Under the pieces are notes generated by a model. It was not told the DNA's origin and did not search any database. It saw only the letters and a program-made list of their open reading frames with translations. The position numbers and the translations under genes were made by a program. A DNA stretch of 64,000 nucleotides, taken from IMG/VR virus record IMGVR_UViG_3300029548_000183. One strand, written 5' to 3'. Numbering within the stretch: position 1 is the first letter of the stretch; each line of letters opens with the position of its first letter. This DNA comes from a virus. Its lineage: Duplodnaviria > Heunggongvirae > Uroviricota > Caudoviricetes. Positions 20,242 to 53,054 of the stretch are shown here, one piece after another.

Positions 20242-20439
20242 ATTATTTCACTCCCTGATATTTTTTTCGTTCACGTTCAATAAACTTAAATTACAACTTT
20301 TGAGGTTAATTGTCAAGCACAATAACCTTAAATTTTTTCTTAAAATGTGCTGCCTTAAATTCATAAATGTTTTCTTAATTGCCTACATTCCCTTTGTTTA
20401 TGGGTTATTTGCTTATATTTTTTTTAAATTTTTCTTTTC

Positions 20440-21140: not shown

Positions 21141-21282
21141 TAATCTTCAAAAAATTTTTTTATATATTTGTAAAAAAAATCACTTACATGGATTTGTGTA
21201 CAAGTTAGAAAACAGATCATCATTTTATTGGCAAAAAAATAATTTCTTAGAGAAATAAATTCATCTTTTAAGGTAAATAATT

Positions 21283-22285: not shown

Positions 22286-22351
22286 GTTAATAATAAGAAA
22301 TTTTTTTTCATATATAAAAAAAGAAAGCATTTCTGCTTTCCTTTTCTTTTC

Positions 22352-22852
22352 TTATTTCTCTTCTTTTGATAAATTTATTTCTATTATTTTTTTTAGATCA
22401 GGATACTCATTTGAAAGAATATTTAAGTATTCTATAATTGCATCTCTAATAAATTGGGATGTGTTAATATCAGCATATAATGCTGCAGTTTTACTCAACT
22501 CATCCAATTTTCTTGTAAGATATATTTTTTTTTGAATTGTATTTTCTGTTTTTACAAAATCTTCTAACATTTTTTTTATTGAAGTATTTGTTTGATCATC
22601 TGATGATAATTCTTGTTTTTCTTCCTCTTTTTGGGGAAGTGACATTTTTTCTTCTTTTTTTATTTCTTTCTCTAAGTTTATGTTTGACTCTTCAGTAGCA
22701 TTTTCATTTTCTGTTTTATCAGATAATGAATCAGAATCATTTTCTGATATTGGTTTTATTTTTTTTTCTACAACATTATTGCTTTCTTTTTTCTTTTTTT
22801 CACTTTCAAATCCAAACAACAATTCCTCAGTGAAGGATTTTGTTTTTGCCAT
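22352..22852 (-). CDS. small acidic protein with C-terminal ribbon-helix-helix-like segment; probable ParG/omega-type centromere-binding protein
   Basis: Immediately downstream of parA in the same operon; C-terminus ..SKTAALYADINTSQFIRDAIIEYL. Confidence 0.5.
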   Translation of the reverse strand: MAKTKSFTEELLFGFESEKKKKESNNVVEKKIKPISENDSDSLSDKTENENATEESNINLEKEIKKEEKMSLPQKEEEKQELSSDDQTNTSIKKMLEDFVKTENTIQKKIYLTRKLDELSKTAALYADINTSQFIRDAIIEYLNILSNEYPDLKKIIEINLSKEEK

Positions 22853-22869
22853 AATTTTATTTCTCTCCT

Positions 22870-23637
22870 CTATTTTTCATTTATAAATTCATCAACTAAT
22901 TTGACATAGTCTTTTGCACTTGTACAATTAGGCATGTAATTTAATAACAGTTCTCTTTTGGTTTGCGCTTCCTTGACACTAATGCATCTTCTAATTGTTG
23001 TTTTAAAAAGTTTTGTTCCTATTTGTCCAGCTATTTCTTCCAAAGTTTTTTTAACTTCTCTGGAAAGAATAGTTCGTTTATCATCCATGACAAGAAGTAA
23101 TCCTGCTATATTTAAATTTGGATTAAATCTTTTTTGTGTCTTCTTTATTGAGTCATATAATTGAGCTAATCCCTGTACTCCATATTGATCTGCTGTTATT
23201 GGGATGATAATATCATCAACTGCAACAAGGCAATTAATCAATAATGTATTTAAACTTGGACCAGTATCAATAACTAAATAATCATATCCATTTAAATTGG
23301 AAATGGAATCTCTCAATTTAAAGAAACCATCAACATCTCCATTTAATATTTTGTCAGCATTTGAAAGAAGACTATCAGATGCAATAATATCTCCTGCTTC
23401 TGTATGCTGAATTGCTTCATTAATGTCAACCGGATTTTCTTCTTCAAGAATTACATCATATAAGGTAGTTATACCATCTCCTGTATTAGCTCTGTATGTA
23501 TTAGTGCTGTTGCACTGTGGATCTGCATCTATAAATAAAACCTTATATCCTTTTGTTTGCAATACATTTGCTATTGCTGTGGCTGTGGATGTTTTTCCAA
23601 CTCCACCTTTTTGATTTGCTATAAGTATAGTTCTCAT
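22870..23637 (-). CDS. parA: ParA-family partition ATPase
   Basis: Deviant Walker A motif KGGVGKT in ..IANQKGGVGKTSTATAIA..; typical ParA length. Confidence 0.9.
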   Translation of the reverse strand: MRTILIANQKGGVGKTSTATAIANVLQTKGYKVLFIDADPQCNSTNTYRANTGDGITTLYDVILEEENPVDINEAIQHTEAGDIIASDSLLSNADKILNGDVDGFFKLRDSISNLNGYDYLVIDTGPSLNTLLINCLVAVDDIIIPITADQYGVQGLAQLYDSIKKTQKRFNPNLNIAGLLLVMDDKRTILSREVKKTLEEIAGQIGTKLFKTTIRRCISVKEAQTKRELLLNYMPNCTSAKDYVKLVDEFINEK

Positions 23638-31249: not shown

Positions 31250-32776
31250 ATGAAAGGTATAAAATATTTTATGATAAAAGCAATTATTATTGGTGTTGCA
31301 GTAGTATTATTTTTAATTCTTATTTTAACTAGTTATGTTAAGGCTCCACCAAATATGGCATATGTAATTTCCGGATTAAAGAAACATCCAAAAGTATTAA
31401 TTGGAAGAGCAGGAATTAAGTGGCCAATACTTGAAAGACTTGATAAATTATTATTAGGTCAGATTACAATTGACATTAAGACTGAAGGATACATTCCAAC
31501 AAGAGATTTCATTAACATTCAGGTTGATGCTGTTGCAAAAGTTAAGGTTGGAAATACAGAGGAAATGATGGCTCTTGCAATGAAAAACTTTTTAAATAAG
31601 AATTCTGATGCAATCATTGAAGATTTACAGGATTCACTTCAGGGCAATATGCGTGAGATCATAGGTACTCTTGATCTTAGAAGCATCTGTAATGACAGAA
31701 ATGAATTTGGTAACATGGTGCAGGAATCTGCAACTAAAGACATGGCAAAATTAGGAATTGAAATCATATCATGTAACATTCAGAATGTAAATGATGAAAC
31801 AGACTTGATTGTAAACATGGGTGCTGACAATACTGCTAAAATCAGAAAAGATGCAAGCATTGCAAAAGCAGAAGCAGAGAGAGATGTGGCAATTAAACAG
31901 GCAGAGGCAGATAAGGCTGCCAATGATGCAAAAGTAGCATCAGAACTCGAAATTGCTCAGAAGCAGAATGAATTGGAAATCAAGAAAGCAGAGTTAAAGA
32001 AAGTTGCTGATGCAAAGAAAGCAGAAGCTGATGCGGCATATGAAATTCAGCAGCAGGAACAGAGAAAATCAATTGAAATTGCTTCATCAAATGCAGACAT
32101 TGCAAAACAGGAAAGAGAAGCAGAAAAGAAAAAACAGGAAGTATTGGTTAAGGAACAGGCTCTTGCAGCTGAAGTCAAGAAGACAGCAGAGGCAGAAAAA
32201 TTCAGAAGACAGCAGGAAGCAGAAGCTGAATTATTTGAAAGACAAAAAAATGCTGATGCACAGAAAGCAGAAGCAGAAGCTAAAAAATATGCTTTGGAAC
32301 AGGAAGCTGAAGGTATTAAGGCAAAAGGACAGGCAGAAGCTGAGGCAATCAAGGCAAAGGCTCTTGCAGAAGCAGAAGGTCTTCAGAAGAAAGCAGAAGC
32401 AATGCAGAAGTATGGTGAAGCAGCAATACTTGAAATGTACTTTAAATCATTGCCTGAAGCTATTAAAAATGCAGCTGAACCACTTGGAAATGTTGAATCA
32501 ATTACAATGTATGGTAATGGCAACAATGAACAGATGGTAAGTTCAATTATGAACACAGTAACGCAGGTTAATGATGGTATTAAGGGTTCAACAGGACTTG
32601 ACATGAAATCTGTACTTGCAGGTGTTCTTGGAACTAAGGCTCTTTCATCAGTTGCATCTGATAATAATGAAGATGTTGATGCTGATGATCAGAAGAAAGA
32701 AGAAAAAACATCAAAAGAAAATGCTAAATATACAGAAGTTGTAGAAACTGTTAAAAAAGAAAAAACAGAAGAATAA
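31250..32776 (+). CDS. flotillin-like SPFH protein (FloT/YqiK-like)
   Basis: N-terminal TM, SPFH core, then a long Ala/Glu/Lys/Gln coiled coil with EA repeats. The ORF-track entries embedded at 32004-32604 are frame artefacts. Confidence 0.8.
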   Translation: MKGIKYFMIKAIIIGVAVVLFLILILTSYVKAPPNMAYVISGLKKHPKVLIGRAGIKWPILERLDKLLLGQITIDIKTEGYIPTRDFINIQVDAVAKVKVGNTEEMMALAMKNFLNKNSDAIIEDLQDSLQGNMREIIGTLDLRSICNDRNEFGNMVQESATKDMAKLGIEIISCNIQNVNDETDLIVNMGADNTAKIRKDASIAKAEAERDVAIKQAEADKAANDAKVASELEIAQKQNELEIKKAELKKVADAKKAEADAAYEIQQQEQRKSIEIASSNADIAKQEREAEKKKQEVLVKEQALAAEVKKTAEAEKFRRQQEAEAELFERQKNADAQKAEAEAKKYALEQEAEGIKAKGQAEAEAIKAKALAEAEGLQKKAEAMQKYGEAAILEMYFKSLPEAIKNAAEPLGNVESITMYGNGNNEQMVSSIMNTVTQVNDGIKGSTGLDMKSVLAGVLGTKALSSVASDNNEDVDADDQKKEEKTSKENAKYTEVVETVKKEKTEE

Positions 32777-33575: not shown

Positions 33576-34070
33576 ATGAAGAAAATTTTTTCAAATTATG
33601 AAATCAGAGAAAAAGAAGTTTATGTGGTTAAGGACAAAATGGAAGGTCCTGTACTAAAAAAAGAAGCAATGAAAGAGGCTCAGGAGCAGGAACTTGATCT
33701 TGTTCAGATTGCAGTCAAGGATGGAGTTCCAATCTGCAAATATCTTGACTATAACAAGTATGTGTATGATTTAAAGAAAAAAGAAAAGGGAAACAAGCAT
33801 AAAAAACAGGAAGTAAAGGAAATAAAGATTACTGCAAACACAGAAGAACATGACATAAAAATTAAGGAAAACAAAATAAGAAAAATGCTTGAAAAAGGCT
33901 GTGAAATTAAAATAACAATGATGTTTCGTGGCAGGGAAAAGGCTAACAAGAAATTTTATGTTCCTAAACTTGAATCAATGGTTGAAGACTTAATGGATGT
34001 TGCAGTTGTGTCAAAAAAAATAAAAATTACTGATTACAATGCATTTGTGATTCTTAAATCAAACAGGTAA
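33576..34070 (+). CDS. infC: translation initiation factor IF-3 homolog
   Basis: By-eye alignment to bacterial IF3 over its full length: ..IREKEVYVV..ELDLVQIAVKDGVPICKYLDYNKYVY..QEVKEIKITANTEEHDIKIKENKIRKMLEKGCEIKITMMFRGRE.. Confidence 0.8.
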   Translation: MKKIFSNYEIREKEVYVVKDKMEGPVLKKEAMKEAQEQELDLVQIAVKDGVPICKYLDYNKYVYDLKKKEKGNKHKKQEVKEIKITANTEEHDIKIKENKIRKMLEKGCEIKITMMFRGREKANKKFYVPKLESMVEDLMDVAVVSKKIKITDYNAFVILKSNR

Positions 34071-34083
34071 AAGGTATTTCATA

Positions 34084-34866
34084 ATGAAAAAAAGAAAAAT
34101 AATATTTTTAACAATTGCATACACAATGCTAACATCTTTTGTTGGTTGTCAAAAAATAAACATAAGGTCTCCAGAAAAAACTGAACAGACAACAGAATTT
34201 TTTTCTGCAAGAGAGACTGAATTAATTACACAACCAATAATAAACATAAGTAGCAAGGATAAATCAAAACCAAAGAAATTTAAATACTTAAATATAGAAG
34301 AAACTCCAAAAGAATTAACGGTTGAATCGTATGATGGTTCATGCAAGTTTCTGATAATTCCTGATGAATCCAATGAATTGCCAGTAACAGGAATTACAGG
34401 TTCAGCATTTTTTGGAAGTAAAGCAGGATTTAAGTATGTGATTTTTGGAAAGAACATAAAAGAAATAGGTAAAAATGCTTTTTGCCAACAGAAAAATTTA
34501 AAATACATTAATTTTAATGATTGCTTGGAAAATATTGATGATGCTGTTTTTTTATCAACAGGTCTAAAAGGAACAATAGTAATTCCTAACAGTGTTAAAT
34601 ACATAGGTAATGGTGCATTTGCTGACACAAAAATAGAAAACATAATTGTAGGAAGTGGTGTGAAAAAAATATCAGCAGTTGCATTCAGTGTTGGTCCAAC
34701 ATTAAAAACAGTTACATTTACGAGCATGAACATTGAGTTTGATGATGACAATAAGAAAGATGGAAACATATTCTATGGTTGTCCAAACTTAACAATTATT
34801 GCACCAATAGGTTCAACAGCAGAAAAATATGCCAAAAAGCACAACATTAGCTTTAAGGAATTATAA
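34084..34866 (+). CDS. lipoprotein with BspA-type leucine-rich repeats
   Basis: Signal peptide with lipobox FVGC. Repeats ..IGKNAFCQQKNLKYINF.., ..IGNGAFADTKIENIIV.. and ..ISAVAFSVGPTLKTVTF. Confidence 0.6.
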   Translation: MKKRKIIFLTIAYTMLTSFVGCQKINIRSPEKTEQTTEFFSARETELITQPIINISSKDKSKPKKFKYLNIEETPKELTVESYDGSCKFLIIPDESNELPVTGITGSAFFGSKAGFKYVIFGKNIKEIGKNAFCQQKNLKYINFNDCLENIDDAVFLSTGLKGTIVIPNSVKYIGNGAFADTKIENIIVGSGVKKISAVAFSVGPTLKTVTFTSMNIEFDDDNKKDGNIFYGCPNLTIIAPIGSTAEKYAKKHNISFKEL

Positions 34867-34951
34867 AAATATTTGGAAAATAAGAGTGTACTTTTGTGTA
34901 TACTCTTATTTTTTTGTCATTAACACCCATTTTATAAATGGAGGTGATTTT

Positions 34952-35560
34952 ATGGGATACATGATATTCAATGTGTATGCTAAACACCATCAAAAATGGA
35001 TGGATAATTTTACATATACGCTTAAGTACACAAAAAAAGGGTTCTACTTCGTTTTCAAGGTAAAAAAAGAAGACATAAAAAAGATTAAAAGAGAGATAAG
35101 AAAACATCATTTGAGATATGCAATGTATGAGGAAAAATGGGAAAGATCAAGTTCCTACAGAAAGAAGTTTTTTAAGGCAAATAAAGGTCCATACAGATGC
35201 CGTTATTGTAACCAAATTCTAAAGAAGGAATACCTTGTGGTTGACCATATTTATCCAATTGCAAAAGGAAAGTATAACAAAGAAAGCAGAAAATTACTAA
35301 ATCTAAGAGGAATTGAAAATGTTAATGATACAAGAAATCTGGCAGCAAGTTGTTTTAAATGTAATGAAAAAAAGGGAGACAAACTTGGGCTATGGTACAT
35401 AAGGGGACTACTTGGACAATATGACTGGTATTGGAAAACATTAAAAATTTTAAAAATTTTGATTATTATTGTAATTATTTTAAGCCTGATTTTCATTTTT
35501 CTGCATTTTTCCAACCTTAATTTCCACTTGCAAAAAATTATAAAAAATCCATTACGCTAA
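34952..35560 (+). CDS. HNH endonuclease with C-terminal transmembrane anchor
   Basis: RBS GGAGGTGA 7 nt before ATG 34952. HNH core CRYCNQ..VVDHIYPIAKGG-like..N..NL..SCFKCNEKKGDK. C-terminus ILKILIIIVIILSLIFIFL is hydrophobic. Confidence 0.7.
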   Translation: MGYMIFNVYAKHHQKWMDNFTYTLKYTKKGFYFVFKVKKEDIKKIKREIRKHHLRYAMYEEKWERSSSYRKKFFKANKGPYRCRYCNQILKKEYLVVDHIYPIAKGKYNKESRKLLNLRGIENVNDTRNLAASCFKCNEKKGDKLGLWYIRGLLGQYDWYWKTLKILKILIIIVIILSLIFIFLHFSNLNFHLQKIIKNPLR

Positions 35561-35641: not shown

Positions 35642-38600
35642 ATGGATAATTTTAAAAATTTTACGGATTTAAAACAGAAACAGATTACAATCTGTCAGAA
35701 ACTCATTCCTGTTGGAATGACAAGAAAAAACATTGACATTTTTAATGCAATGGAAAGTGATGAATATGTCTCTGAAAATAAGGGTGAAATCAGAAAGTTA
35801 ATTAAGCTATTGGCCAGAGAAAAAATGGAAGAAGGAATAAGCAAGGCAAAATCAAATTTAAGTTTTACAAAACTTCTTGGCTTGATGAATGAGTACAATG
35901 AAACTGATTCTGAATATAAGATGGAAGTCCTTGAAAGACTCTTTGATGAAAGAGTAAGACTTGCCAACATTATTGCATCAGAATTTAAGACAAAATTTTC
36001 CTGTGCTGACACAATAACTACTCTTCTTCCTGAATATGTTAATGAACATTTCAATGGAAGTGAAAAGGAAGAATACCTAAACCTTCTTGAAGAGGTTAAG
36101 AAACATCAGGCAATGTTTAACAGGTTTGAGTCAAACATTGACAACATGTTTTCACCAATGCTAAAAAAAGGCTCTGTTGTATACAGAATGTTGGTTGAAA
36201 ATACTCAGATATTTCTTAATAACAAATCAAAAACTGATAAGGAAGATTTTAAGAAAATCATTGATTTGTCAGAACTTGATGATGAAACAAAAAGCATCAT
36301 CATCAAAAGATGCATTGACATTGATGAAGAGTCATATGCAGAAGTCCTAATTCAGGAAGACATTGACGGATACAACTATTGCATTGGAATGCTTAATAGT
36401 GAAAGCAAGATGTTTTGTGATAAAAACAAATTAAACTACAAGGACTTTGAACTTAAAAACTTATATAAGGCAATGCTCTGTGAAAAGACTGCATTCTTTG
36501 AAAAAATTGATTCATTTAAAAATGATGAGCAGATTGTGGATTCCTACAATTCATTAATGTCAAACATTAATGCAAAAAACATTGCAAAAACATATGAAAA
36601 GTGCATGGGACACATGGATGGAATGCACATAAAACCATCAGTTCTTTCATTTTATTCTAATGTTGTGTATGGCAAATGGAATGTTGTAAGAAACTGCATA
36701 AGAGCCTACTGTCAGGATGAAATGAATTCAATAAAAAAGAATAAAAAGAGTCTTGATGATTATTATGAAGCTTTCATTAAGAAAGGCATAACAATTAACC
36801 AGATAAGTAACATTGTATCATCATATGCTGAAGAACTTGAGCTAAAGGTCTTTGAGAAAGATTTATCAGATACAATATACAGTTATCTTTTACATAAATA
36901 TGCATGTGTGGAAGAGGAAAAAACTCCATTGAAGTCTGATGAAAGCAAAAATGCAGAAACAATCAGGGTTGAACTTGAACATTGCATTCAGGCATTAAGG
37001 TTACTAAAAATTTATGACACTGAAAATGACAATCTCAATGAAGAAATGAAAACATTGATTGATGAAATCATTGATGAATTGTCACCTGCCATATTATTGT
37101 TCAACATGACAAGAAACTACATAACTGCAAAACCTACTCCAAAGAAAAAACTTGCATTGACATTCAATACTGCAAGCTTTGGAGGAGGGTGGAGTGAAAG
37201 TGTTGAAAGTTCAAAGAGAGTGAGTTTACTAAAGGATGATGAAGGAAACAAGTACCTGATGATATACAACATAACAGGATGTAAGGCTAACAATGTTTCC
37301 ATGGTATCAGTTACGGAAAAAGTAAAGGCGAATTTACTTAATGACAAGAAGAACATTGACTGTTACAGAAAACTTGTATACAGTGCGGTTCCTGATGCAT
37401 TAAAGGACATATCAAGACTTTTCATTAACAAACTTGAAGATGAAGAAATGATTAAACGCTACAAGAATAAGGAACACAAGGAAAACAGGGAATTTCTTAA
37501 TGAACTGATAAGTGTCTTAAAGAAAAAGATTAATGAGCATCCTACATGGTCAAGATATGGCTTTAAGTTTAGGGATGAATACGATTCCTTTGATGATTTT
37601 TGCGATGACATTAATAATCAGGGCTACTATGCAAAATGGAAATACATTCCAAAGACAGTAATTGATGAGTATGTCGAAAATGGATGCATTTATCTGTTTA
37701 AGATTTACAACAATGATTATAGTGCATACAAAAAGGCAGGTTCAAAGGTTAAAACCCATACAAGATACCTTGATTACTTATTTAGTGATGAAAATGAAAA
37801 AACAGATCTCATCAAATTACTTGGAGGTCTTGAAGTATTCTATAGAGAGCCTCAGATTAAGAATCCTTATGTACATAAAAAAGGTAGCATTCTTGTAAAC
37901 AAGAAATACAAGGATGGAACAATCATTGGTAATGAATATAAGGAGTTATTTAAAAAGGCACAGACAACAAAACTTGACAATGTGTATACAAGAGCGTGTC
38001 CATATGACATCATAAAGGACAAGAGATATACAATGGAACAGTTTGAAGTTCATTTTCCAATATTGATTGGTAATGACAATAATCCTGAAAATTTCATTGA
38101 AATGAGTAAACACTTTGTTGAAAATGCAAAGCACACGGTTGTTGTTGGTAGAAACAGGGACAATCTTTTATATGTGTCTGTTTATGAGGAAAATGCCTTA
38201 ATTCATTCAAAATCACTTAATAAAGTAAATGGAACTAATTACAAGGATAAGTTATTCATAATTGAAGATGCAAAGAAAAACAATGCAAGAAACTGGAAAA
38301 CAATAGGCTCAAATGATGCATTGCTGACAGGATACATTTCAGCAGTAATAAAAGATATCACAGACCTTGTTCTTAAATACAATGCAGCTCTCGTCATTGA
38401 AATGGGAAGTAACTTGGCAAAAGACAGAAATCTCTTGCCAAACAGAGTATATACAAAGTTTAAGGAAGCACTACTTCACAAATTGGAATTTCTAATTGAT
38501 TCAGAAAAGGCTGATGATGAACCGGGTGGATTATTACATCCTTATCATTTGACTGAAATTAATAAGAAAAATCCAAAGAGAAGTATTGATACTCCACACA

Positions 38601-39181
38601 ATGGAATAGTGTTACTGGTACCTTCATTTTATTGTGGTTTAACTGATCCGGAATCAAATCTTTGTAATCTTACTTATGCAAGAACAAAAAAGGAAAAGGA
38701 AGAGGTTCTTAAAAAAATTAAGGGATTTAAGTACAATAAGGAAGAAAGTATTTTTGAATTTGTTTATGACATGTCATTATTCAATCCTAACATGAAAGGA
38801 AAGTTTACTTGTACAAGCAATGGAGACAGACTGGTTGATACAGAAAATGATAAGGTGGTAATGGACTTAACACATTATATTGAAGATAAGTTAAAATCAC
38901 TTGGAATCGAGTATAAGTCAGGAAATGAAATTAATCTCATTTCTGATGATGGGTTAACAAATGAAACTTTATTTAACTGTATTAGATACACATTACAGAT
39001 GAACAATGGTAATTTCTTCATTTCTCCTGTTACGGGATTTTGCTATACTTGTGATGGTTGTTCAAACATTTCTTATAATAGAAATTTGTACAACAGATCA
39101 AAACTGGTTAAGGAAAACATAAAGAGTGGAAAGAAACTTAAGTTCATGACAATCAAGGACATTTACAAACCTCAGTCTTAA
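35642..39181 (+). CDS. cas12a: Cas12a (Cpf1)-family protein; RuvC and Nuc catalytic residues appear substituted (predicted nuclease-deficient)
   Basis: Cas12a hallmark blocks found by eye: QKLIPVGMTRKNI (WED-I), RNYITAKPTPKKKLALTFNTASFGGGW, GCIYLFKIYNNDYSAYKK..THTRYLDYLFSDENEKTDLI..LEVFYREPQ, YDIIKDKRYTMEQFEVHFPI, and the RuvC-II block YNAALVIEMG with Glu retained. The RuvC-I position reads TVVVGRNRDNLLYV where IGIDRGERNL is expected. The Nuc block reads TLQMNNGN (Arg replaced by Asn). No DADANGAY-like RuvC-III motif is present. Confidence 0.85.
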   Translation: MDNFKNFTDLKQKQITICQKLIPVGMTRKNIDIFNAMESDEYVSENKGEIRKLIKLLAREKMEEGISKAKSNLSFTKLLGLMNEYNETDSEYKMEVLERLFDERVRLANIIASEFKTKFSCADTITTLLPEYVNEHFNGSEKEEYLNLLEEVKKHQAMFNRFESNIDNMFSPMLKKGSVVYRMLVENTQIFLNNKSKTDKEDFKKIIDLSELDDETKSIIIKRCIDIDEESYAEVLIQEDIDGYNYCIGMLNSESKMFCDKNKLNYKDFELKNLYKAMLCEKTAFFEKIDSFKNDEQIVDSYNSLMSNINAKNIAKTYEKCMGHMDGMHIKPSVLSFYSNVVYGKWNVVRNCIRAYCQDEMNSIKKNKKSLDDYYEAFIKKGITINQISNIVSSYAEELELKVFEKDLSDTIYSYLLHKYACVEEEKTPLKSDESKNAETIRVELEHCIQALRLLKIYDTENDNLNEEMKTLIDEIIDELSPAILLFNMTRNYITAKPTPKKKLALTFNTASFGGGWSESVESSKRVSLLKDDEGNKYLMIYNITGCKANNVSMVSVTEKVKANLLNDKKNIDCYRKLVYSAVPDALKDISRLFINKLEDEEMIKRYKNKEHKENREFLNELISVLKKKINEHPTWSRYGFKFRDEYDSFDDFCDDINNQGYYAKWKYIPKTVIDEYVENGCIYLFKIYNNDYSAYKKAGSKVKTHTRYLDYLFSDENEKTDLIKLLGGLEVFYREPQIKNPYVHKKGSILVNKKYKDGTIIGNEYKELFKKAQTTKLDNVYTRACPYDIIKDKRYTMEQFEVHFPILIGNDNNPENFIEMSKHFVENAKHTVVVGRNRDNLLYVSVYEENALIHSKSLNKVNGTNYKDKLFIIEDAKKNNARNWKTIGSNDALLTGYISAVIKDITDLVLKYNAALVIEMGSNLAKDRNLLPNRVYTKFKEALLHKLEFLIDSEKADDEPGGLLHPYHLTEINKKNPKRSIDTPHNGIVLLVPSFYCGLTDPESNLCNLTYARTKKEKEEVLKKIKGFKYNKEESIFEFVYDMSLFNPNMKGKFTCTSNGDRLVDTENDKVVMDLTHYIEDKLKSLGIEYKSGNEINLISDDGLTNETLFNCIRYTLQMNNGNFFISPVTGFCYTCDGCSNISYNRNLYNRSKLVKENIKSGKKLKFMTIKDIYKPQS

Positions 39182-39287
39182 TTTTAACAAAGTCAAAATT
39201 ATAAAAGAAAAATGAGTGAATATACCCAAAATCATTGTGATTATGTACTTTTTTCATAAAGAAAATTGTGCATAATCACAAGATAAG

Positions 39288-39502
39288 AGTTAAAGAAAAG
39301 CAAATGTCTGCTGATATGCAGATTAGATTGTGCCACTCATTCCATCAGAAGTTAAAAGAAGACGAAATGTCTACCATCATGTAGATCATAACAAGTAGCA
39401 TATCCCAATATACAGTAAAAGGAAGTAAAATGTCTGCCATTATGTAGATATGGTGTGATTACTCTGGATTTCAATGAGAAAAAATTCTGCTGTTGATGAA
39501 AT
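39288..39502 (+). CRISPR. mini CRISPR array: 3 Cas12a-type repeats plus a degenerate terminal repeat, 3 spacers of 26-27 nt
   Basis: Period of 63 nt. Repeats of ~36 nt end in AATGTCTGCTGATATGCAGAT, AATGTCTACCATCATGTAGAT and AATGTCTGCCATTATGTAGAT (Cas12a-like UCUAC-loop-GUAGAU hairpin). A 4th copy at 39470-39502 is degenerate. Confidence 0.75.
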
Positions 39503-39628
39503 ATATTCCGTAAGCTTGTAAAATCATGAAAAGAAAAAATTATTCAAAAACTAAATAGAGTCAGTTAATCTGGCTCTTTTCTTTTTGTAGAATGCAAAAA
39601 TTGAGATAACAAACAAAATGGTATAATA

Positions 39629-39726
39629 AAAAATAAAAAAAGTAATGTCTGCTGTTATGCAGATTCAGTGTGTGTAATAGGACAAACTATATTAAAAGAA
39701 AACAAAATGTCTGCTATTGCGTAGAT
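39629..39726 (+). CRISPR. second mini-array: 2 repeats, 1 spacer (26 nt), with its own promoter-like and terminator sequences
   Basis: Repeats end GTAATGTCTGCTGTTATGCAGAT and AAAATGTCTGCTATTGCGTAGAT. TTGAGA-N15-TATAAT lies upstream (39601-39627). A hairpin plus T-run lies downstream (39740-39766). A separate terminator at 39558-39596 divides it from array 1. Confidence 0.65.
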
Positions 39727-39833
39727 ATAATAAGTAAAAATTGGAGTCAAAAGTAGACTCCTTTTTTTGTACAAAAATAAACAAGGAAACAACCATATTA
39801 AGTATAAGAAAACAATGAAAGAAGGAAGAAAAG

Positions 39834-40691
39834 ATGCTTAACTTAAATTCTTTATACAATGGGGATTGCCTTGAAGTAATGAATCAGATTGATGACAAAT
39901 CAATTGACTTAATATGTACTGACCTGCCTTATGGACAAACAGCAAGAAATAAATGGGATACTGTCATTCCCTTTTGTGATTATGTGAAAATAAAAGGAAA
40001 TACATACTATGAAAATGATGTATTTAAAATTAGTGGTGTGCTTAATAAGAATATGGAATACACAAAAAAATGGTTTGATGAAAACAAAAAGACAGGACTA
40101 TGGACTCATTATAAACGTATCATTAAGGACAATGGAGCAATTGTTTTGTTTGCAAATGGTATGTTTACGGCTGACTTAATGAAAAGCAATGAGAAAATGT
40201 GGAGGTATAATCTTGTATGGCAAAAAACGCAGCCAACAGGTCATTTAAATGCAAAAAGAATGCCATTACGTTCACATGAAGACATATGTGTTTTCTACAA
40301 AAAACTTCCAACATATAATCCACAAAAAACAACAGGACATAAAAGAAAAGTATCAACAGCAAAAAACAAAATGAACTGTAAGAAAACATTAAATTATGGT
40401 GAATATAATCTGACATCATATGATAGCACGGAAAGATACCCAACCTCAGTATGGACTTTTTCAAAGGACATACAAAAATCAGCAATACATCCGACACAAA
40501 AACCAGTTGCCTTAATTGAGAAAATAATAAAAACATATTCAAATGAAAATGAAATTGTTCTTGATTCCTGTGCCGGAAGCATGACAACTACGATTGCCAG
40601 CATTAACACACACAGGCAGTACATATGCATTGAAAAAGACAAGGATATTTTTGAATCTGGAAAGGAAAGAGTACAAAAAGCAAAAAAATAA
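39834..40691 (+). CDS. DNA methyltransferase (N6-adenine/N4-cytosine, beta class), orphan
   Basis: Motif IV DLICTDLPYG precedes motif I DSCAGSMTT; no adjacent restriction endonuclease. Confidence 0.8.
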   Translation: MLNLNSLYNGDCLEVMNQIDDKSIDLICTDLPYGQTARNKWDTVIPFCDYVKIKGNTYYENDVFKISGVLNKNMEYTKKWFDENKKTGLWTHYKRIIKDNGAIVLFANGMFTADLMKSNEKMWRYNLVWQKTQPTGHLNAKRMPLRSHEDICVFYKKLPTYNPQKTTGHKRKVSTAKNKMNCKKTLNYGEYNLTSYDSTERYPTSVWTFSKDIQKSAIHPTQKPVALIEKIIKTYSNENEIVLDSCAGSMTTTIASINTHRQYICIEKDKDIFESGKERVQKAKK

Positions 40692-42215: not shown

Positions 42216-42221
42216 GGGCTT

Positions 42222-42295
42222 GGATCATTAGCTCAGCAGGTTGGAGCGGTTGTCTCATAAGCAACAGGTGGTAGGTTCGACTCCTACATGATCCA
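42222..42295 (+). tRNA. tRNA with anticodon CAU (elongator Met or lysidine-dependent Ile2 type)
   Basis: Cloverleaf folded by hand. Acceptor GGATCAT/ATGATCC with 7 Watson-Crick pairs; D-arm GCTC-AGCAGGTTG-GAGC; anticodon arm GTTGT-CTCATAA-GCAAC; T-arm GTAGG-TTCGACT-CCTAC; discriminator A; no encoded CCA. The paired 1-72 position argues against an initiator. Confidence 0.85.
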
Positions 42296-42504
42296 TTAAA
42301 AAAGGAATATTATTCCTTTTTTTTTGCTCTTTTTCTCTGATTAAACAAAAAAGAGTATACAGCCATATTATAAGTGAAGGGCAAAAAGTCCTTCTTCTAA
42401 GTATTACAAATTTTAAATTCAAAAGAAAGGAGGATCAGGGATTAAACTGAATATCAATATTCTACCCATCTGTTATTCTCACAGATGGGTCCCTGTTTTT
42501 ACGA

Positions 42505-43419
42505 ATGTTTTTATTTTTCATTGTGATTGCATTGGGAATTGCAGTTGTTTCAACATGTGTAAAGATTGTGCCACAGGCTCATTCTTACATAATTGAAAGA
42601 TTGGGAGTGTATCAACAGACATGGCCAGTTGGCATACATTTCAAAATTCCATTTTTGGACAGAGTGGCAAGAAAGGTTAATTTAAAGGAGCAGGTTGCAG
42701 ATTTTGACCCACAGCCTGTTATTACAAGAGATAATGTAACAATGCAAATTGATACAATTATTTTTTATCAGATTACGGATCCAAAACTTTATGCTTATGG
42801 CGTTGAAAATCCAATTTTGGCAATTAAGTCATTGACTGCAACAACACTCAGAAACATAGTAGGCGACTTGGAACTTGATGAAACTCTTACTTCAAGAGAA
42901 ACAATCAATGCCAAGATGCGCACAGAACTTGACGTAGCGACTGATCCTTGGGGAATAAAGGTCAACAGGGTAGAACTTAAAAACATCATTCCACCAAGAG
43001 ACATTCAGGAAGCAATGGAAAAGCAGATGAGAGCTGAACGAGAAAAACGTGAACAAATTCTTAGAGCAGAAGGTGAAAAGAAATCCGCAGTTCTCATTGC
43101 AGAAGGAAAGAAGGAAGCTGCAATTCTTAATGCAGAAGCAGATAATAAGGCTGCTGTTCTTAAAGCTGATGCTGAAAAGAAAAAACGAATTCTTGAAGCT
43201 GAAGGTGAGGCACAGGCCATTCTTAGTGTTCAGAAGGCAACGGCAGATGGAATTAAGGTGATTAAGGAAGCAGGAGCAGATGATGCAGTTCTTACACTTA
43301 AGAGTTTAGAAGCTTTTGTGGCTGCAGCTGATGGTCAGGCTACAAAGATTATCATTCCATCAGAAATCCAGGGAATTGCCGGTTCAGTAAAGGCTTTGGC
43401 AGAAACAATCAAGGATTAA
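42505..43419 (+). CDS. SPFH-domain protein (stomatin/QmcA-like)
   Basis: N-terminal TM. IVPQAHSYIIERLGVYQQTWPVGIHFKIPFLDRV matches the stomatin-type SPFH core. No clear RBS before ATG 42505, so the start is uncertain. Confidence 0.8.
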   Translation: MFLFFIVIALGIAVVSTCVKIVPQAHSYIIERLGVYQQTWPVGIHFKIPFLDRVARKVNLKEQVADFDPQPVITRDNVTMQIDTIIFYQITDPKLYAYGVENPILAIKSLTATTLRNIVGDLELDETLTSRETINAKMRTELDVATDPWGIKVNRVELKNIIPPRDIQEAMEKQMRAEREKREQILRAEGEKKSAVLIAEGKKEAAILNAEADNKAAVLKADAEKKKRILEAEGEAQAILSVQKATADGIKVIKEAGADDAVLTLKSLEAFVAAADGQATKIIIPSEIQGIAGSVKALAETIKD

Positions 43420-43585: not shown

Positions 43586-44002
43586 ATGAAATTAGATAAT
43601 AATAATCATTCGGTATTCATGCTCCATTATCACCTTATTATGTGCATTAAATATCGTAATAAAGTTATAGATGATAAAATCTCAAACCGTCTCAAAGAAA
43701 TATTTGAGAAGATAGCTCCTTCCTATAACATCACGTTAGAGGAATGGAATCACGACATAGACCATGTACATATACTATTTCGAGGACAGCCCAATACGGA
43801 AATAAGTAAATTTATCAATGCTTATAAATCTGCAAGCAGTAGACTTATCAAAAAAGAATATCCTCAGATACGTAAATATCTCTGGAAAGAGATGTTCTGG
43901 TCACAGAGCTTTTGTCTGTTAACCACGGGCGGTACTACGGTAGATATTATTAAGCAATATATCCAATCTCAAGGTAAGAAAGATGGCAAACAGAGCAATT
44001 AA
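43586..44002 (+). CDS. tnpA: IS200/IS605 family transposase TnpA (HUH Y1)
   Basis: HYHLIMC..YRNKV.. and ..HDIDHVHILFRGQP.. (HuH motif), ..ASSRLIKKEYP..LWKEMFWSQSFCLLTTGG.. over 138 aa. Confidence 0.85.
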   Translation: MKLDNNNHSVFMLHYHLIMCIKYRNKVIDDKISNRLKEIFEKIAPSYNITLEEWNHDIDHVHILFRGQPNTEISKFINAYKSASSRLIKKEYPQIRKYLWKEMFWSQSFCLLTTGGTTVDIIKQYIQSQGKKDGKQSN

Positions 44003-45128
44003 GTACAGAGCATATCCTACAACTAAACAATCTGTCATGTTTGCTAAGACCTTTGGCTGTTGTCGTAAGGTCTATAATCTCATGCTTTCAGATAAGATTG
44101 AAGGCTACAAGGCTACTGGTGAGTTTCCTACTGTTACACCTGCTAAGTATAAGAACGATTATCCTTATCTTAGAGAAGTAGACAGCCTTGCTCTTGCCAA
44201 TAAGCAGATGGACTTACAGGAGGCTTTTCGTAATACATTTAGTAAATCTCGTAAGAAGAAAAACGGTTTTCCTAAATTCAAGTCTGCCAAACATAGTCGT
44301 AAGTCCTATACTACAAACAATCAAAAAGGCACAGTTGCTATCATAGATAACAAATGTATTAAGCTCCCTAAGATTGGAAAGGTAAAAGCTGTTATCCATC
44401 GTGTGCCTGACGATAGTTGGACAATTAAATCGGCTACCGTATCACAGGAATCTGACGGCAAATATTATATCTCCGTACTCTTTGAGTTTGAGAATACCGT
44501 AAATCCTTATGTAGCCGATAAAACTAATGCCATCGGGTTAGATTATGCTTCCGACGGCTTATACGTAGATAGTAATGGCAATACAGGTACTAATCATAAG
44601 TATTATCGTGAGAGCCACAACAAGCTTGCTAAGGCTCAGCGTAAGCTATCACGTATGCAAGGCTCTAAGAAACACGAGGTTAAGTCCAATAATTATATAA
44701 AGCAACTCCGTAAAGTGAATAAGATACATAGGCATATCGCTAATCAGCGTTTGGATAACCTGCATAAGATATCTACTGAGATAGCCAATCAGTATGATGT
44801 TGTTTGTGTAGAATCCCTAAATATGAAAGTTATGTCAAATAAAGGTTTTGGTAATGGCAAAGCTACTCTTGATAACGGATATGGCATGCTCCTGTCTATG
44901 CTTGAATACAAGTTATCTGACAGGAATAAGTATCTCATCAAGGTAGACAAGTGGTTCCCGTCATCACAGATATGTCATTGTTGTGGTATGCTACATCCTG
45001 AAATGAAGAATTTAGCCATCCGTAAAATGACATGTAATTGTGGTCTTACAATAAGCCGTGACCAGAACGCTGCTATCAATATCCTAAAGGAAGGATTACG
45101 ACTACTGACTGAAGTAGCCCGAAACTAA
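43983..45128 (+). CDS. tnpB: TnpB (IS605 OrfB) RuvC-like RNA-guided nuclease family protein
   Basis: C-terminal zinc finger ICHCCGM..CNCG, followed by ISRDQNAAINILKEG (RuvC-III). Start overlaps the end of tnpA. Confidence 0.85.
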   Translation: MANRAIKYRAYPTTKQSVMFAKTFGCCRKVYNLMLSDKIEGYKATGEFPTVTPAKYKNDYPYLREVDSLALANKQMDLQEAFRNTFSKSRKKKNGFPKFKSAKHSRKSYTTNNQKGTVAIIDNKCIKLPKIGKVKAVIHRVPDDSWTIKSATVSQESDGKYYISVLFEFENTVNPYVADKTNAIGLDYASDGLYVDSNGNTGTNHKYYRESHNKLAKAQRKLSRMQGSKKHEVKSNNYIKQLRKVNKIHRHIANQRLDNLHKISTEIANQYDVVCVESLNMKVMSNKGFGNGKATLDNGYGMLLSMLEYKLSDRNKYLIKVDKWFPSSQICHCCGMLHPEMKNLAIRKMTCNCGLTISRDQNAAINILKEGLRLLTEVARN

Positions 45129-49448: not shown

Positions 49449-49570
49449 CATGCAAAAAACATAAAAAGTCAAATAAAATACGTCAAAATTTAGAATAAAT
49501 AGTTAAAAATTTCAGGTATATCCGGCACCCATTTTGTTTTTAGACAAACAAAATGAAAGGTGGAAACGAT

Positions 49571-51895
49571 ATGCAGACAAGTATATTTGATTTTATGATG
49601 CCGGAAATCTCAATAGACAAGCCAATAAGACTTATTGAACTGTTTGGTGGATATGGCTCACAAGCTATGGCACTAAAAAGAATAGGAGCAAATGTTGAAC
49701 ATTGGAAAATGTCTGAATGGGAAATAGATGCAGACAAGTCATACAACAGTGTTCATAATAACAAGGATTTTAAAAATTATGCAAGGGGAAAGAGCAGAGA
49801 ACAACTTGCAAGAAAATTATATAAAAGGGGCATATCAAATGATGGCAGCACTCCAATGCCTTATTCAAAAATAAGAAAAATGAGTTTGGAACAGTTACAG
49901 AAAACATATAATTCATTCTGCCAGAATCAGAATTTGGGAAGCATAACAAACATAAAAGGAAAACAACTAAACATAGTGAATACCAATAAGTATGAATACA
50001 TAATGACATATTCCTTTCCCTGCACTGATTTATCATTGTCAGGAAAGCAAAAAGGAATGAAAAAGGGAAGTGGAACAAGAAGCGGACTGCTATGGGAAGT
50101 TGAAAGAATTCTCACTGAATTAAGAGACGAGGGAAGGGAACTTCCTCAAATATTATTCATGGAAAATGTACCGCAAGTCATTGGAGCAAAGAACATTGAA
50201 GATTTCAGGGATTGGGAAGATTTCTTAAAAAGTCTTGGATACTCAAATCATCTGCAAATATTAAATGCAAAAAATTATGGAGTTGCTCAAAATAGAGAAA
50301 GATGTTTCATGCTTAGTTTTTTAGGGGAATATAACTATCATTTTCCGGAACCGATAAAATTGGACAAGAGATTAAAGGACTATCTTGAAAAAGATGTTGA
50401 TGAAAAATATTACATAAAAAATGAAAAAGCAAAAAGGTTAATAGATGAATTAATAAAAAGTAGAACATTTAAACCTGATTCCATAATGACATATGACATT
50501 CCTCAAACTGTTCTTGTAAGAAAACATGAAATAGATAATAAAAAATTATGTGAATTTTTAAGAAAACATAAGGCAAATTCAAATAAAACAAATGTTGAAA
50601 TTGCAGAAAATTTAAATCTGCCTGTAACACAGGTTGAGCACTGGTTTAGAATGGATAACAGCTTTGCAGTTCCTGATGCAAACGTATGGATTAATCTAAA
50701 AAAATGTCTAAATATACAGTCTGATGAATGGGATGAAAAAATCATGACATTTGAGGAGAAATTATCAGTTTTTGAAAAAGGAAACAGATGTTATGGTGCC
50801 AATGGAATAGCACCTACAATTACAAGTTCAAGTGCTGATGAAAAAATCATAGAACCTAAGTGTCTGAATAGTAAAGGTGGCAGAAATGGAGTAGAAGGAC
50901 TTCAACCAAAAGTTATAGGCTCAATTTATACTGAAAATTCAGAAATGTTTGGCACAAAATTAATGCCAATAGCACATACATTAAAGGCATCAAAAAATGA
51001 TGTGGCAATTGTTGAAAAAATTAAGGAATCTGAACCACAAATTGAAGTTCTTGGTAATTACATGAAGAGTAACCATGATGCAACAAGAGTGGTATCACCT
51101 GAAGGCATTGCACCAACGGTAAGAGAATGCCATGGTTCAGTTACAGCCGTTGCACTTGAGGATGAGAGTAATGATGCACAGATTAACATACTTGGACTTC
51201 TGGACATAAAAGGAAAAGATCAGGTTAGACGTGTATATGGTGTTGATGGAATTTCACCTACACTTAACACAATGCAAGGAGGAAACAAACAACCAAAAAT
51301 AGTTGAAAGTGAAGTGGTATCAGCAGCAATAAGAGGAAGATATGATGAGAATGGTAAGGTGGAACAGCATTTGGAACAGGGAAGCAGGGAGTACTCAAAC
51401 ACAATAACAACTGTAACAAAGGATAATATGGTAATAGAAAAGAATAACAAGCCTGAAAGGGTCGGTCAAATTTCAAGTGATGGAAGTCAATGTGGAATGG
51501 TGTATTCTGATGATGGACTCTTCCCTACACTTAGTGCGGGATGTCATGGATATGCAAATCCACATGTATATACACAATATAGAATAAGAAAACTGACACC
51601 TGTTGAATGTGGAAGACTAATGGGTGTCAATATGGATGACATCATAAGAATGATAATTGCAGACCACAGGAAAGCTGATGAATATTTACAATACATGAAA
51701 GACAATGGCATTGAATATGAAGGAAAAAAACAAATGGATGAACTTTCAAAAATACAGGGAATGTCAAATTCCAAATTATACAAGCAGTATGGAAATTCAA
51801 TTGTGGTTGATGTGATGTGTGCAATGTTTAGAAACTTAAACATCAAGGGTATTAAAAATTGGAATAATTATTGTAAAAATCAGGCAAAAAAATAA
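49571..51895 (+). CDS. DNA (cytosine-5) methyltransferase with long C-terminal extension, orphan
   Basis: Motif I ELFGGYGS, IV FPCTDLS, VI FMENVPQV, VIII AQNRERCF. About 500 aa follow motif VIII. RBS AAAGGTGGAAA before ATG 49571. Confidence 0.85.
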   Translation: MQTSIFDFMMPEISIDKPIRLIELFGGYGSQAMALKRIGANVEHWKMSEWEIDADKSYNSVHNNKDFKNYARGKSREQLARKLYKRGISNDGSTPMPYSKIRKMSLEQLQKTYNSFCQNQNLGSITNIKGKQLNIVNTNKYEYIMTYSFPCTDLSLSGKQKGMKKGSGTRSGLLWEVERILTELRDEGRELPQILFMENVPQVIGAKNIEDFRDWEDFLKSLGYSNHLQILNAKNYGVAQNRERCFMLSFLGEYNYHFPEPIKLDKRLKDYLEKDVDEKYYIKNEKAKRLIDELIKSRTFKPDSIMTYDIPQTVLVRKHEIDNKKLCEFLRKHKANSNKTNVEIAENLNLPVTQVEHWFRMDNSFAVPDANVWINLKKCLNIQSDEWDEKIMTFEEKLSVFEKGNRCYGANGIAPTITSSSADEKIIEPKCLNSKGGRNGVEGLQPKVIGSIYTENSEMFGTKLMPIAHTLKASKNDVAIVEKIKESEPQIEVLGNYMKSNHDATRVVSPEGIAPTVRECHGSVTAVALEDESNDAQINILGLLDIKGKDQVRRVYGVDGISPTLNTMQGGNKQPKIVESEVVSAAIRGRYDENGKVEQHLEQGSREYSNTITTVTKDNMVIEKNNKPERVGQISSDGSQCGMVYSDDGLFPTLSAGCHGYANPHVYTQYRIRKLTPVECGRLMGVNMDDIIRMIIADHRKADEYLQYMKDNGIEYEGKKQMDELSKIQGMSNSKLYKQYGNSIVVDVMCAMFRNLNIKGIKNWNNYCKNQAKK

Positions 51896-52016: not shown

Positions 52017-53054
52017 ATGGAGAGAAATTTAATAATAAGTCAGTTGCAAAAACAGGACCAGTCAGTTATATCATTTCCTGACAGAAACAGTGAGTGGGGT
52101 GATTCCAAGTATCGTGGAAACTGTTCAGGTTGGATACAGGCTTTTCTCATATGGAAGTATCAGGTAGAAAAATTTGCTGAATTGTTTAGTGGCTCAGGTA
52201 CGGGATATGATGTGGCAAAGGACATGGGTATTAAATATGTTGGAGCTGACCTTAATCCTGTTCCTGTAAGACCGGGCATACTTCAGGTAAATGCAGTTAC
52301 TGATGAAGTACCCGAAGCATTTGTTCAGAGTGACTTTATTTTCATGCATCCACCCTATGGTGCTGAAATTGGCATACCATATGCCGGAGCAGAATGGGGG
52401 GCAGAAAAGAAATGGACAAAGGTTAATGGCAGAAACAAATGTATCATCACTGATCATACCAATGAATTAATACCAAAAATGGGATATGATCCCAAGGATT
52501 ATGATTTGGGACGAATGGAATGGAATAAATTCATCAAGACATTAAACACAATAATAATGAAATATTATTCAGCAATGCAGAATGGTGCAAAAATGGGAAT
52601 CCTCATGGGTGATGTGAGAAGAGCAGGAAAGTTTCATTCTATGCTTACGGACATTGTTAAACCCGGAAGCCTAGAGCAGGTAATCATTAAGATGCAACAT
52701 AATACTGTGTCTGAAAGACAAAACATACAGTATGCTCACAAAAATTTTGTTCCCTTGGTACATGAATACATAATGGTTCTAAAGAAAATTACGCCATACA
52801 TAATTGATTTTTCGTTACCAACAAAATATGAAGGGGACATAAGGGATTCTTCATCAGCCACATGGAGAGATGTTGTTGTTGCTGCAATGAACAATCTTGG
52901 AGGAACAGCAGATCTTAACTCAATTTACAATGAAATTGATGGACATAAGAAATGTAAAAATAATGAACTTCATTGGAAAGAAAAAATCAGACAGACATTA
53001 CAGCATTACAATGTATTCATAAATATTGAACGTGGAGTTTGGTCCTTGGCTTAA
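52017..53054 (+). CDS. putative N6-adenine DNA methyltransferase (gamma-like motif order)
   Basis: Motif I-like FSGSGTG, then motif IV-like MHPPYG. Confidence 0.6.
   Translation: MERNLIISQLQKQDQSVISFPDRNSEWGDSKYRGNCSGWIQAFLIWKYQVEKFAELFSGSGTGYDVAKDMGIKYVGADLNPVPVRPGILQVNAVTDEVPEAFVQSDFIFMHPPYGAEIGIPYAGAEWGAEKKWTKVNGRNKCIITDHTNELIPKMGYDPKDYDLGRMEWNKFIKTLNTIIMKYYSAMQNGAKMGILMGDVRRAGKFHSMLTDIVKPGSLEQVIIKMQHNTVSERQNIQYAHKNFVPLVHEYIMVLKKITPYIIDFSLPTKYEGDIRDSSSATWRDVVVAAMNNLGGTADLNSIYNEIDGHKKCKNNELHWKEKIRQTLQHYNVFINIERGVWSLA

Follow-up and report, generated by a model that had tools for sequence, protein, structure and literature searches.

A Cas12a homologue with a lost RuvC site beside drifting, leader-end polymorphic arrays on a plasmid of gut Clostridia

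Introduction

Cas12c (bioRxiv 10.1101/2021.12.06.471469) and Cas12m (PMC10442227) bind DNA under the guidance of a CRISPR RNA (crRNA) without cutting double-stranded DNA, and they protect by binding and transcriptional silencing. Type IV-A3 systems, which reside on large conjugative plasmids and have neither an adaptation module nor a nuclease, have been demonstrated to acquire spacers in trans and silence rivals in inter-plasmid conflict (bioRxiv 10.1101/2023.06.23.546257). CRISPR loci borne by mobile genetic elements without adaptation genes are thought to rely on host Cas1-Cas2 in trans (PMC9071438). Here we describe a Cas12a locus with features of both groups, found in a 64-kb stretch of DNA (64,000 nt, hereafter the window) from IMG/VR record IMGVR_UViG_3300029548_000183. 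The Cas12a homologue has lost two of the three RuvC catalytic motifs. It is followed by two short arrays whose repeats have drifted in sequence while their handle hairpin is kept by compensatory changes, and the first array differs at its leader end between nearly identical plasmids. All coordinates refer to the window unless another locus is named; L-numbers denote related loci or plasmids and P-numbers related proteins that were compared with it.

The locus shares many features with canonical V-A systems (handle AAUUUCUAC-N3-5-GUAGAU). These include the domain architecture of the effector, the absence of a trans-activating CRISPR RNA (tracrRNA), an array beside cas12a on the same strand, a repeat of ~35-36 nt beginning with GTT.AA, a 5-bp stem of the UCUAC/GUAGA type directly 5' of a 26-28 nt spacer, and the joining of new units at the leader end. 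Unlike canonical systems, it has lost the RuvC-I Asp and the RuvC-III motif, and cas4-cas1-cas2 was not found. Its handle carries AAUG rather than AAUU and a G.U closing pair, with a loop of 6 nt (4-12 nt in relatives); its repeats are only 69-83% identical within the array, and it has two transcription units.

Cas12c, Cas12m and the Cas12k of V-K transposons are alike in kind, being type V effectors in which DNA binding guided by a crRNA is retained and double-stranded DNA is left uncut, although binding by the window protein is our proposal from its sequence. They belong to other Cas12 families, whereas its sequence marks the window protein as a bona fide Cas12a. In addition, Cas12c needs a tracrRNA-like scoutRNA, and Cas12m has a non-canonical RuvC triad where two of the three motifs are missing altogether from the window protein. 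The partners of Cas12k are Tn7 proteins; around the members of the window's clade no Tn7-type genes are found, and a link to CRISPR-associated transposons was rejected on these grounds. Type IV-A3 is similar in behavior, since it too is plasmid-borne, with no adaptation genes found, no intact nuclease site and an array that grows, but its proteins, a multi-subunit Csf complex of class 1 and a DinG helicase, are unrelated in sequence.

Results

The Cas12a homologue

The cas12a homologue (35642-39181, + strand) encodes a protein of 1179 aa with all Cas12a domains and a RuvC site that is predicted to be dead. Pfam detects five domains above their cut-offs, RuvC_1 (1.6e-33) together with REC1, REC2, PI and NUC, and a sequence search of the PDB yields full-length matches to ReChb (9e-82) and Lb2Cas12a (8e-72). 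The RuvC-I motif IGIDRGE is changed to VVVGRNR. The stretch IGIDRGERNLLY here reads VVVGRNRDNLLY, so that Asp becomes Gly (Thr in relatives). The RuvC-III segment DADANGAYNIA, which holds the DADANG motif, is deleted, and the RuvC-II Glu is the sole part of the D-E-D triad still present. The same holds throughout the clade, every member of which has the RuvC-I Asp replaced and RuvC-III deleted. The RuvC-II Glu and ~250 other columns of the clade alignment are invariant, so the gene is being maintained and is no pseudogene. The invariant residues include the ribonuclease (RNase) His of the WED domain (VHFPI), and a Lys or Arg aligns with the third RNase residue. Self-processing of crRNA is therefore plausible, though uncertain.

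The protein falls in a small and distinct clade with only four representatives at 50% identity, all scoring at least 845 bits, which is separated by a gap from canonical Cas12a at 570 bits (1319 matches). Clade members lie on 80-230 kb human-gut contigs with relaxase, VirB4-like ATPase, sortase and SNF2 genes. One of them (L026) is found in the isolate genome of Eubacterium album LFL-14, where NCBI labels it plainly as Cas12a/Cpf1. The RuvC-I Asp is also replaced in other Cas12a lineages (P0008, P0015, P0016 and P0018), and the loss is therefore recurrent; the DNase site of Cas12a seems, from these sequences, to have been lost several times. Three of these proteins (P0015, P0016 and P0018), with the motifs IGISRGE, IGICRGT and IGINRGV, are near canonical active Cas12a and partly keep RuvC-III. 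The full-text literature searched contains no description of a natural RuvC-dead Cas12a, an absence that is no proof of novelty.

An open reading frame (ORF) for an HNH endonuclease (34829-35560, + strand) lies 81 nt 5' of cas12a on the same strand and is present in all plasmids of the sub-clade. It is not found beside the more distant cas12a orthologues of L001, L007, L009, L010, L019, L022 and L026.

Pfam detects no Cas1, Cas2 or Cas4 domain in window ORFs of at least 180 aa, although a cas2-sized ORF elsewhere in the window is possible. Nor are these domains present within 6 kb on either side of cas12a in L026 and the other loci of the clade that were examined.

Array 1 and its handles

The first array lies on the + strand and comprises three repeats (39289-39449), the first of which begins 107 nt past the cas12a stop codon. 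The array is regular, with spacers of 26-28 nt and handle starts that are 63 nt apart, the period given by the initial sequence-only reading of this stretch. Repeat 1 (R1, 39289-39323) is the leader-proximal template and carries the handle AAUGUCUGC-UGAUAU-GCAGAU. It is followed by the 27-nt spacer S1 (39324-39350), which is common to all near-identical plasmids and for which no target was found. Repeat 2 (R2, 39351-39386; handle AAUGUCUAC-CAUCAU-GUAGAU) precedes the 28-nt spacer S2 (39387-39414), and repeat 3 (R3, 39415-39449; handle AAUGUCUGC-CAUUAU-GUAGAU) precedes S3 (39450-39476), of which L032 has a 1-nt variant. The 3' limit of S3 is uncertain, and its length may be anything from 18 to 27 nt, because a decayed fourth handle starts just 53 nt after the third. 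This terminal repeat (39470-39502) retains a handle remnant, AAAUUCUGCUGUUGAUGAAAU at 39482-39502, that does not fold. An intrinsic terminator (39557-39587, + strand) closes the array.

A second unit, overlooked in the sequence-only reading, follows at 39644-39726 with its own promoter and its own terminator. The promoter (39601-39627, + strand) consists of TTGAGA, a gap of 15 nt and an extended -10 element, TGGTATAAT (39619-39627); it was read by eye and is missed by a simple scan. Repeat 5 (R5, 39644-39664) is present as a handle only, AAUGUCUGC-UGUUAU-GCAGAU, and leads into the 26-nt spacer S5 (39665-39690), which is kept in all near-identical plasmids. Repeat 6 (R6, 39691-39726) has the handle AAUGUCUGC-UAUUGC-GUAGAU, and an intrinsic terminator (39743-39770) lies within the sequence after it; all of these features are on the + strand. 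The terminator scan returned five terminator-like sites, compared with 0.2 in shuffled sequences. In L032, an additional repeat-spacer unit stands between S5 and R6, and the window R6 corresponds to the 5' half of that extra repeat fused to the handle of the next. On this alignment, R6 is a deletion chimera of two repeats that are intact in L032.

The repeats terminate in AAUGUCU-R-C, a 6-nt loop and G-Y-AGAU. The pattern AATGTYTRC-N6-GYAGAT occurs five times in the window, always on the + strand and within 39303-39726, against 0.06 occurrences expected from dinucleotide-preserving shuffles of the window. All five handles (R1, R2, R3, R5 and R6) form the same 6-bp hairpin, and only the decayed copy remains unfolded. 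Across these five, the 21-nt handle varies at six loop positions and one stem pair, which is G-C in R1 and R5, A-U in R2 and G.U in R3 and R6; the remaining 13 positions are invariant. Full-length repeats in the window have pairwise identities of just 69-83%. Rfam identifies no known RNA family in 39150-39850.

These results uphold most of what the sequence-only reading had said of the repeats. It called them Cas12a-type, and a cas12a gene adjoins the array. The three handles that it quoted agree letter for letter with the window, the switch of the stem pair from G-C to A-U to G-U across R1-R3 is present, every intact copy folds into a Cas12a-type handle hairpin, and the last repeat is indeed decayed. 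Its description of a variable loop is right for the sequence and wrong for the length, which is always 6 nt in the window.

Handle covariation

For the covariation analysis, 20 distinct 21-nt handles were collected from the window clade, L022 and L018/L019. Standard pairs account for 99.2% of the cells, and none of 500 shuffles matched the observed pairing or covariation score. When the 3' partner is slid out of register, pairing falls to 18-53%. Pair 8-17 is the most variable, with 11 AU, six GC and three GU and no A.C, followed by pair 9-16 (19 CG, one UA) and a single U.G at pair 6-19. Thus, two stem positions are altered on both sides.

The same behavior is seen beyond this set. L007/L021 are compensated independently, from CCUAC/GUAGG to CCUGC/GCAGG, and the four-repeat mini-array of E. 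album makes the same compensatory stem switch. The array of P0008 (L031), an unrelated dead Cas12a, passes from GCUUA/UAAGC through GUUUA/UAAGC to GUUUA/UAAAC. In repeat 3 of L016, a C-to-U change gives UUUGC/GUAGA, and pairing is kept via U.G. All of these stem variants fold alike, and the loop ranges from 4 to 12 nt across relatives. The proposal that the hairpin is conserved by covariation as the primary sequence drifts therefore extends from the window to the family: the loop and 5' flank drift, and the stem is compensated.

Several related arrays are irregular in ways of their own. P0008 is an independent RuvC-dead Cas12a-like protein, 24% identical, whose locus carries a heterogeneous array of five repeats with compensated stems (L031 4960-5300). 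E. album has two arrays with homologous leaders (L026 3520-4245 and 4500-4740), one of them regular, with ~12 repeats and one spacer present twice, and the other with four repeats and three handle types. The most irregular array is found upstream of the gene for a 45%-identical orthologue (L019 2374-3054, also L018 2708-3142). It contains 12-13 handles with stems UCUAC/GUAGA, UCUGC/GCAGA or UCUAU/AUAGA, and the 5' repeat halves are barely conserved. Spacing runs from ~41 to 78 nt, some handles are nearly spacer-less, and internal blocks are duplicated.

Array growth in sister plasmids

L012 is identical to the window. L013 encodes an identical Cas12a protein, and its flanks match those of the window at 100% (9,682 bp upstream) and 99.93% (5,775 bp downstream), but behind its leader two extra units precede R1, both of which begin with a perfect R1 copy (order R1-b1-R1-b2-R1-S1). 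L016, with flanks 98-99% identical, has three different extra units at the leader end (Rv-a1-Rv-a2-Rv-a3-R1-S1), and L032-L034 have two others. In all, four leader-end states are found on one R1-S1-R2-S2-R3-S3 core, with backbones that are 98-100% identical. The order of units in L016 shows that a 2-nt change in the first repeat was copied into the later insertions. It shows how repeats come to differ along an array and gives a chronological, leader-polarized record. The metagenome contigs L014, L035 and L036 end inside repeat 1, as expected for a population that is polymorphic at this point.

Spacer b2 of L013 and spacer a3 of L016 occupy the same position and are one base apart. Within L016 itself, spacers a1 and a3 (8684-8710 and 8809-8834 of that locus) are identical at 19 of 26 positions in the same register; the same site has therefore been sampled in two related targets. 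This pair suggests that acquisition favors that site or that spacers taken from it are selected.

Spacers are held in common by near-identical plasmids only. All of them differ in orthologous loci with 36-55% identity, and the possibility raised at the outset, that the spacer-like segments might be conserved between related loci and not be true spacers, is not borne out. Among distant orthologues, L001 and L017 have no common spacer, and L007 and L021 share the last one only. Regular arrays of ~11-12 repeats are found in the dead-clade relatives L022 and L026.

The sequence-only reading had taken the array to be an old one that no longer acquires. Adaptation genes are indeed not found, but acquisition has not stopped, as the four leader-end states on near-identical plasmids attest. 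Since the additions fall at the leader end of a common core, the drifted repeats make up the older, leader-distal end of a still-growing array.

The leader

The leader (39182-39288, + strand) contains a block, TTTTGTGCATAATCACAAGATAAGAG (also given as TTTTGTGnATAATCACAAGATAnGAG), immediately before R1, and within this block lies a -10-like CATAAT (39272-39277). In an alignment of six leaders, the block is kept in orthologous loci whose proteins are just 36-55% identical, and it is recognizable as TTTTGTACATAAT in the E. album locus L026. The inverted repeat noticed in the first reading is real (39235-39281, + strand; TTGTGATTATGTAC ... GTGCATAATCACAA), and its two half-sites match perfectly and are unique within the window. 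Its predicted fold has an energy of -25 kcal/mol (z = -8.8). When four distinct leaders are compared, 16 pairs persist, compensatory changes have occurred at four of them, and one U.G does not vary. The kept pairs and G.U wobbles favor an RNA hairpin on the + strand. An operator overlapping the promoter, as that reading had envisaged, is also possible, because the right arm holds the -10-like CATAAT, which would put the transcription start at ~39284.

Two further ideas about the leader were discarded. S3 shares TGTGATTA with the inverted repeat, but the match is 11/16, with seed mismatches and a poor protospacer-adjacent motif (PAM), and we estimate that chance alone would produce ~2 matches of this quality in the regions scanned. 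A duplicated leader, like that of L001, was also considered as the source of S3 and the decayed repeat; the local alignment scored 28, a value that 16 of 500 shuffles also attained, and it fell on another segment.

Spacer targets

Exact matching of seven spacers (those of the window and three from the leader ends of sister plasmids) to IMG/VR gave no target, and no cross-targeting was found among all compared loci. The sole INPHARED/PLSDB match, 22 nt to E. coli phages with E = 0.7, was judged to be chance. An 18-nt T-rich match between S7 and the cas12a gene of L001 is of low complexity and PAM-distal, and was dismissed.

Self-targeting was rejected as well. Full and PAM-proximal spacer matches to both strands of the window and to 10 kb beyond it are all at chance level, and no spacer has a PAM-proximal match of at least 12 nt in this region. 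Near the promoters of cas12a and the arrays, the highest-scoring matches reach 13/16 for the A-rich S6 and 11/16 for S3, again at chance level, and PAM-proximal complementarity to the spacers does not exceed chance around the cas12a, HNH, leader or P2 promoters. The sequence-only reading had pointed to promoter regions as the place where a silencing-type system would be expected to hit; spacer searches that included them matched no target in the window or the collections searched. Its hint of a silencing-type system nevertheless fits an effector without two of its three RuvC catalytic motifs.

The host element

Judged by its genes, the window belongs to a plasmid of the Rep3/ParA type from gut Clostridia. 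Its minus strand encodes a Rep3 initiator together with ParA (18985-23637), and the window also has a tyrosine recombinase, a SpaA/thioester adhesin, orphan DNA methyltransferases and an IS605 element; a sortase lies just past the window end, as seen in L027/L028. No close relative of the window is present in isolate phage or plasmid collections. A phage origin was rejected, since Cas12a has no match in phage records, there is a single unrelated 1.8-kb similarity, and plasmid genes are found instead.

The window carries other cargo that we record here. A full-length HEARO RNA, of the IscB guide RNA family, lies at 12045-12254 on the + strand and scores 93 bits, above its gathering score. There is no IscB or HNH ORF beside it, and the ORFs that follow are shorter than 130 aa and have no Pfam match. 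A homologue of translation initiation factor IF3 (33576-34070) and a tRNA-Met (42221-42296) are unusual plasmid cargo. Three separate genes encode SPFH/Band 7 (flotillin-like) proteins (7412-8344, 31250-32776 and 42505-43419). The IS200/IS605 element (43586-45128), with TnpA (Y1 transposase) and TnpB, is located 4 kb downstream of the arrays and is also present in L012 and L013. The three DNA methyltransferase genes (39834-40691, 49553-51895 and 52017-53054) comprise two N6/N4 enzymes, one of them with a sub-threshold Pfam score, and one C5 enzyme. No restriction partner was detected among the ORFs scanned, and the first of these genes starts 64 nt past the terminator of array 2.

Discussion

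We propose, with a probability of roughly 0.6, that the locus is a nuclease-dead type V-A system on a plasmid, that it binds DNA without cutting it, that rare spacers are supplied to it in trans, and that its older repeats drift under selection for the handle. The identity of the protein and its lost motifs, the hairpin covariation, the two-unit layout, the leader-end polymorphism and the failure to find adaptation genes were computed directly. We infer the processing of crRNA, binding without cutting, acquisition in trans and the nature of the targets.

In such a system, the + strand would be transcribed from the leader, with a second transcript from the strong promoter before R5. The 3' part of each repeat would fold into the handle hairpin and be bound by the plasmid's own Cas12a, and the spacer downstream would direct the complex to matching DNA. 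Binding without cutting is expected because neither the RuvC-I Asp nor any of the RuvC-III motif is left; the complex would sit on its uncut target and block transcription, replication or transfer. Because no cas1, cas2 or cas4 was found on the plasmid, we suggest that acquisition is performed in trans: a host adaptation module would presumably add occasional spacers at the leader end, copying repeat 1 each time. With acquisition so rare, nothing would re-homogenize the older repeats. Their loop and 5' flank would be free to drift, and selection on crRNA loading would act only against mutations that disrupt the stem or the AAUGU...AGAU frame. For guide loading the last repeat is dispensable, since the Cas12a handle lies 5' of the spacer, and it is this copy that has decayed.

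Several points weigh against this proposal. Searches with ~60 spacers from 10 loci gave no protospacer in the window, the loci of relatives, INPHARED or PLSDB, collections of plasmids and phages from which gut Clostridia plasmids are almost absent. A host adaptation module with a matching repeat was not identified either. The second of the three known RNase residues, the Lys equivalent to K852 of FnCas12a, is without a clear counterpart, and the loss of DNase activity is itself deduced from the sequence alone. Finally, the differences at the leader end could in part reflect loss by recombination between identical repeats. Even with some loss, the three different sets of leader-end spacers still demand several acquisitions.

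This last consideration bears on one alternative, an old array in which acquisition has ended and which is kept for a few useful guides, repeat drift being a matter of age. The lack of detectable adaptation genes, the retention of S1-S2-S3 and S5 in every near-identical plasmid seen, and the strong divergence of R2 and R3 with their stems still kept would all agree with it. We consider it very improbable, however, given four leader-end states with perfect R1 copies on almost identical backbones and orthologous elements that have wholly different spacer sets and regular arrays of ~11-12 repeats. Continued cleavage of DNA, through substitute catalytic residues or the upstream HNH endonuclease, appears to us the least probable of the alternatives. 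The HNH ORF that all sub-clade plasmids carry 81 nt ahead of cas12a, on its strand, and the retained RuvC-II Glu speak for cleavage, but the HNH gene is not next to seven of the orthologues, as listed above, and two of the three RuvC motifs are gone clade-wide.

The remaining alternatives accept a dead effector and assign it another use. All of the guides or a part of them, above all R5-S5-R6, might send it to plasmid or host promoters as a programmable repressor, in the manner of CreR/crRNA-like mini-arrays or tracr-L. V-A loci often contain mini-arrays and standalone repeats, which can act as repressors of cas promoters (bioRxiv 10.1101/2023.03.03.530964). R5-S5-R6 resembles these regulatory crRNA-like arrays in having two repeats, its own promoter, a V-A gene nearby and an altered distal repeat; it is conserved, with an extended -10 promoter and a terminator, and repression would suit a dead effector. 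It differs from them in that no partial promoter complementarity was found and in its place downstream of cas12a, after the main array. Regulation of this kind seems unlikely, as promoter matches are at chance level in the 64-kb window and 10 kb beyond, out of a plasmid of 80-140 kb. Somewhat less likely still is an anti-CRISPR decoy, in which repeat-like RNAs, the dead Cas12a or both would compete with a host V-A system as an RNA anti-CRISPR (Racr) or a dominant-negative effector does. The element is plasmid-borne, its handles are close to the canonical Cas12a handle, those of L018/L019 are in part almost spacer-less and irregularly spaced, and Racrs, repeat-like hairpin RNAs from mobile elements, include V-A examples (PMC10651486). 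Racrs are solitary, though, and lack functional spacers or cas genes, whereas the window repeats alternate with variable spacers beside an effector gene. Those spacers are of normal length, vary from element to element and show turnover at the leader end, and the protein retains full-length REC and PI domains under purifying selection, which a simple RNA sponge would not need.

Returning to the nuclease-dead V-A system, a broader generalization can be put forward tentatively, at slightly less than even odds. The small dead Cas12a clade on conjugative plasmids and integrative elements of gut Clostridia would be a single-protein, class 2 counterpart of type IV-A3, that is, a programmable non-cutting binder whose arrays are fed in trans by the host and which silences rival mobile elements or host genes, with a handle in which any stem is accepted so long as it pairs, and any loop so long as it measures 4-12 nt.

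Much of the surrounding biology is already known, including non-cutting Cas12c and Cas12m, trans acquisition by type IV-A3, V-A mini-arrays and RNA anti-CRISPRs; what would be new, to judge from the sequence, is a natural RuvC-dead Cas12a. The public label of such proteins is plain "Cas12a/Cpf1", so users could take members of the dead clade for nucleases. The natural repeat variants also mark which handle positions are needed (AAUGU, the paired stem and AGAU) and which are free (the 5' flank and the loop, in its sequence and, within 4-12 nt, in its length), a tolerance map that is useful for the design of non-repetitive multiplex crRNA arrays. If the proposal is correct, nature has already made a "dCas12a" and kept it on plasmids. 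A single-protein class 2 case would then join the few CRISPR systems that bind and do not cut (Cas12c, Cas12m and type IV), and would extend the range of plasmid-borne CRISPR fed by host adaptation machinery.

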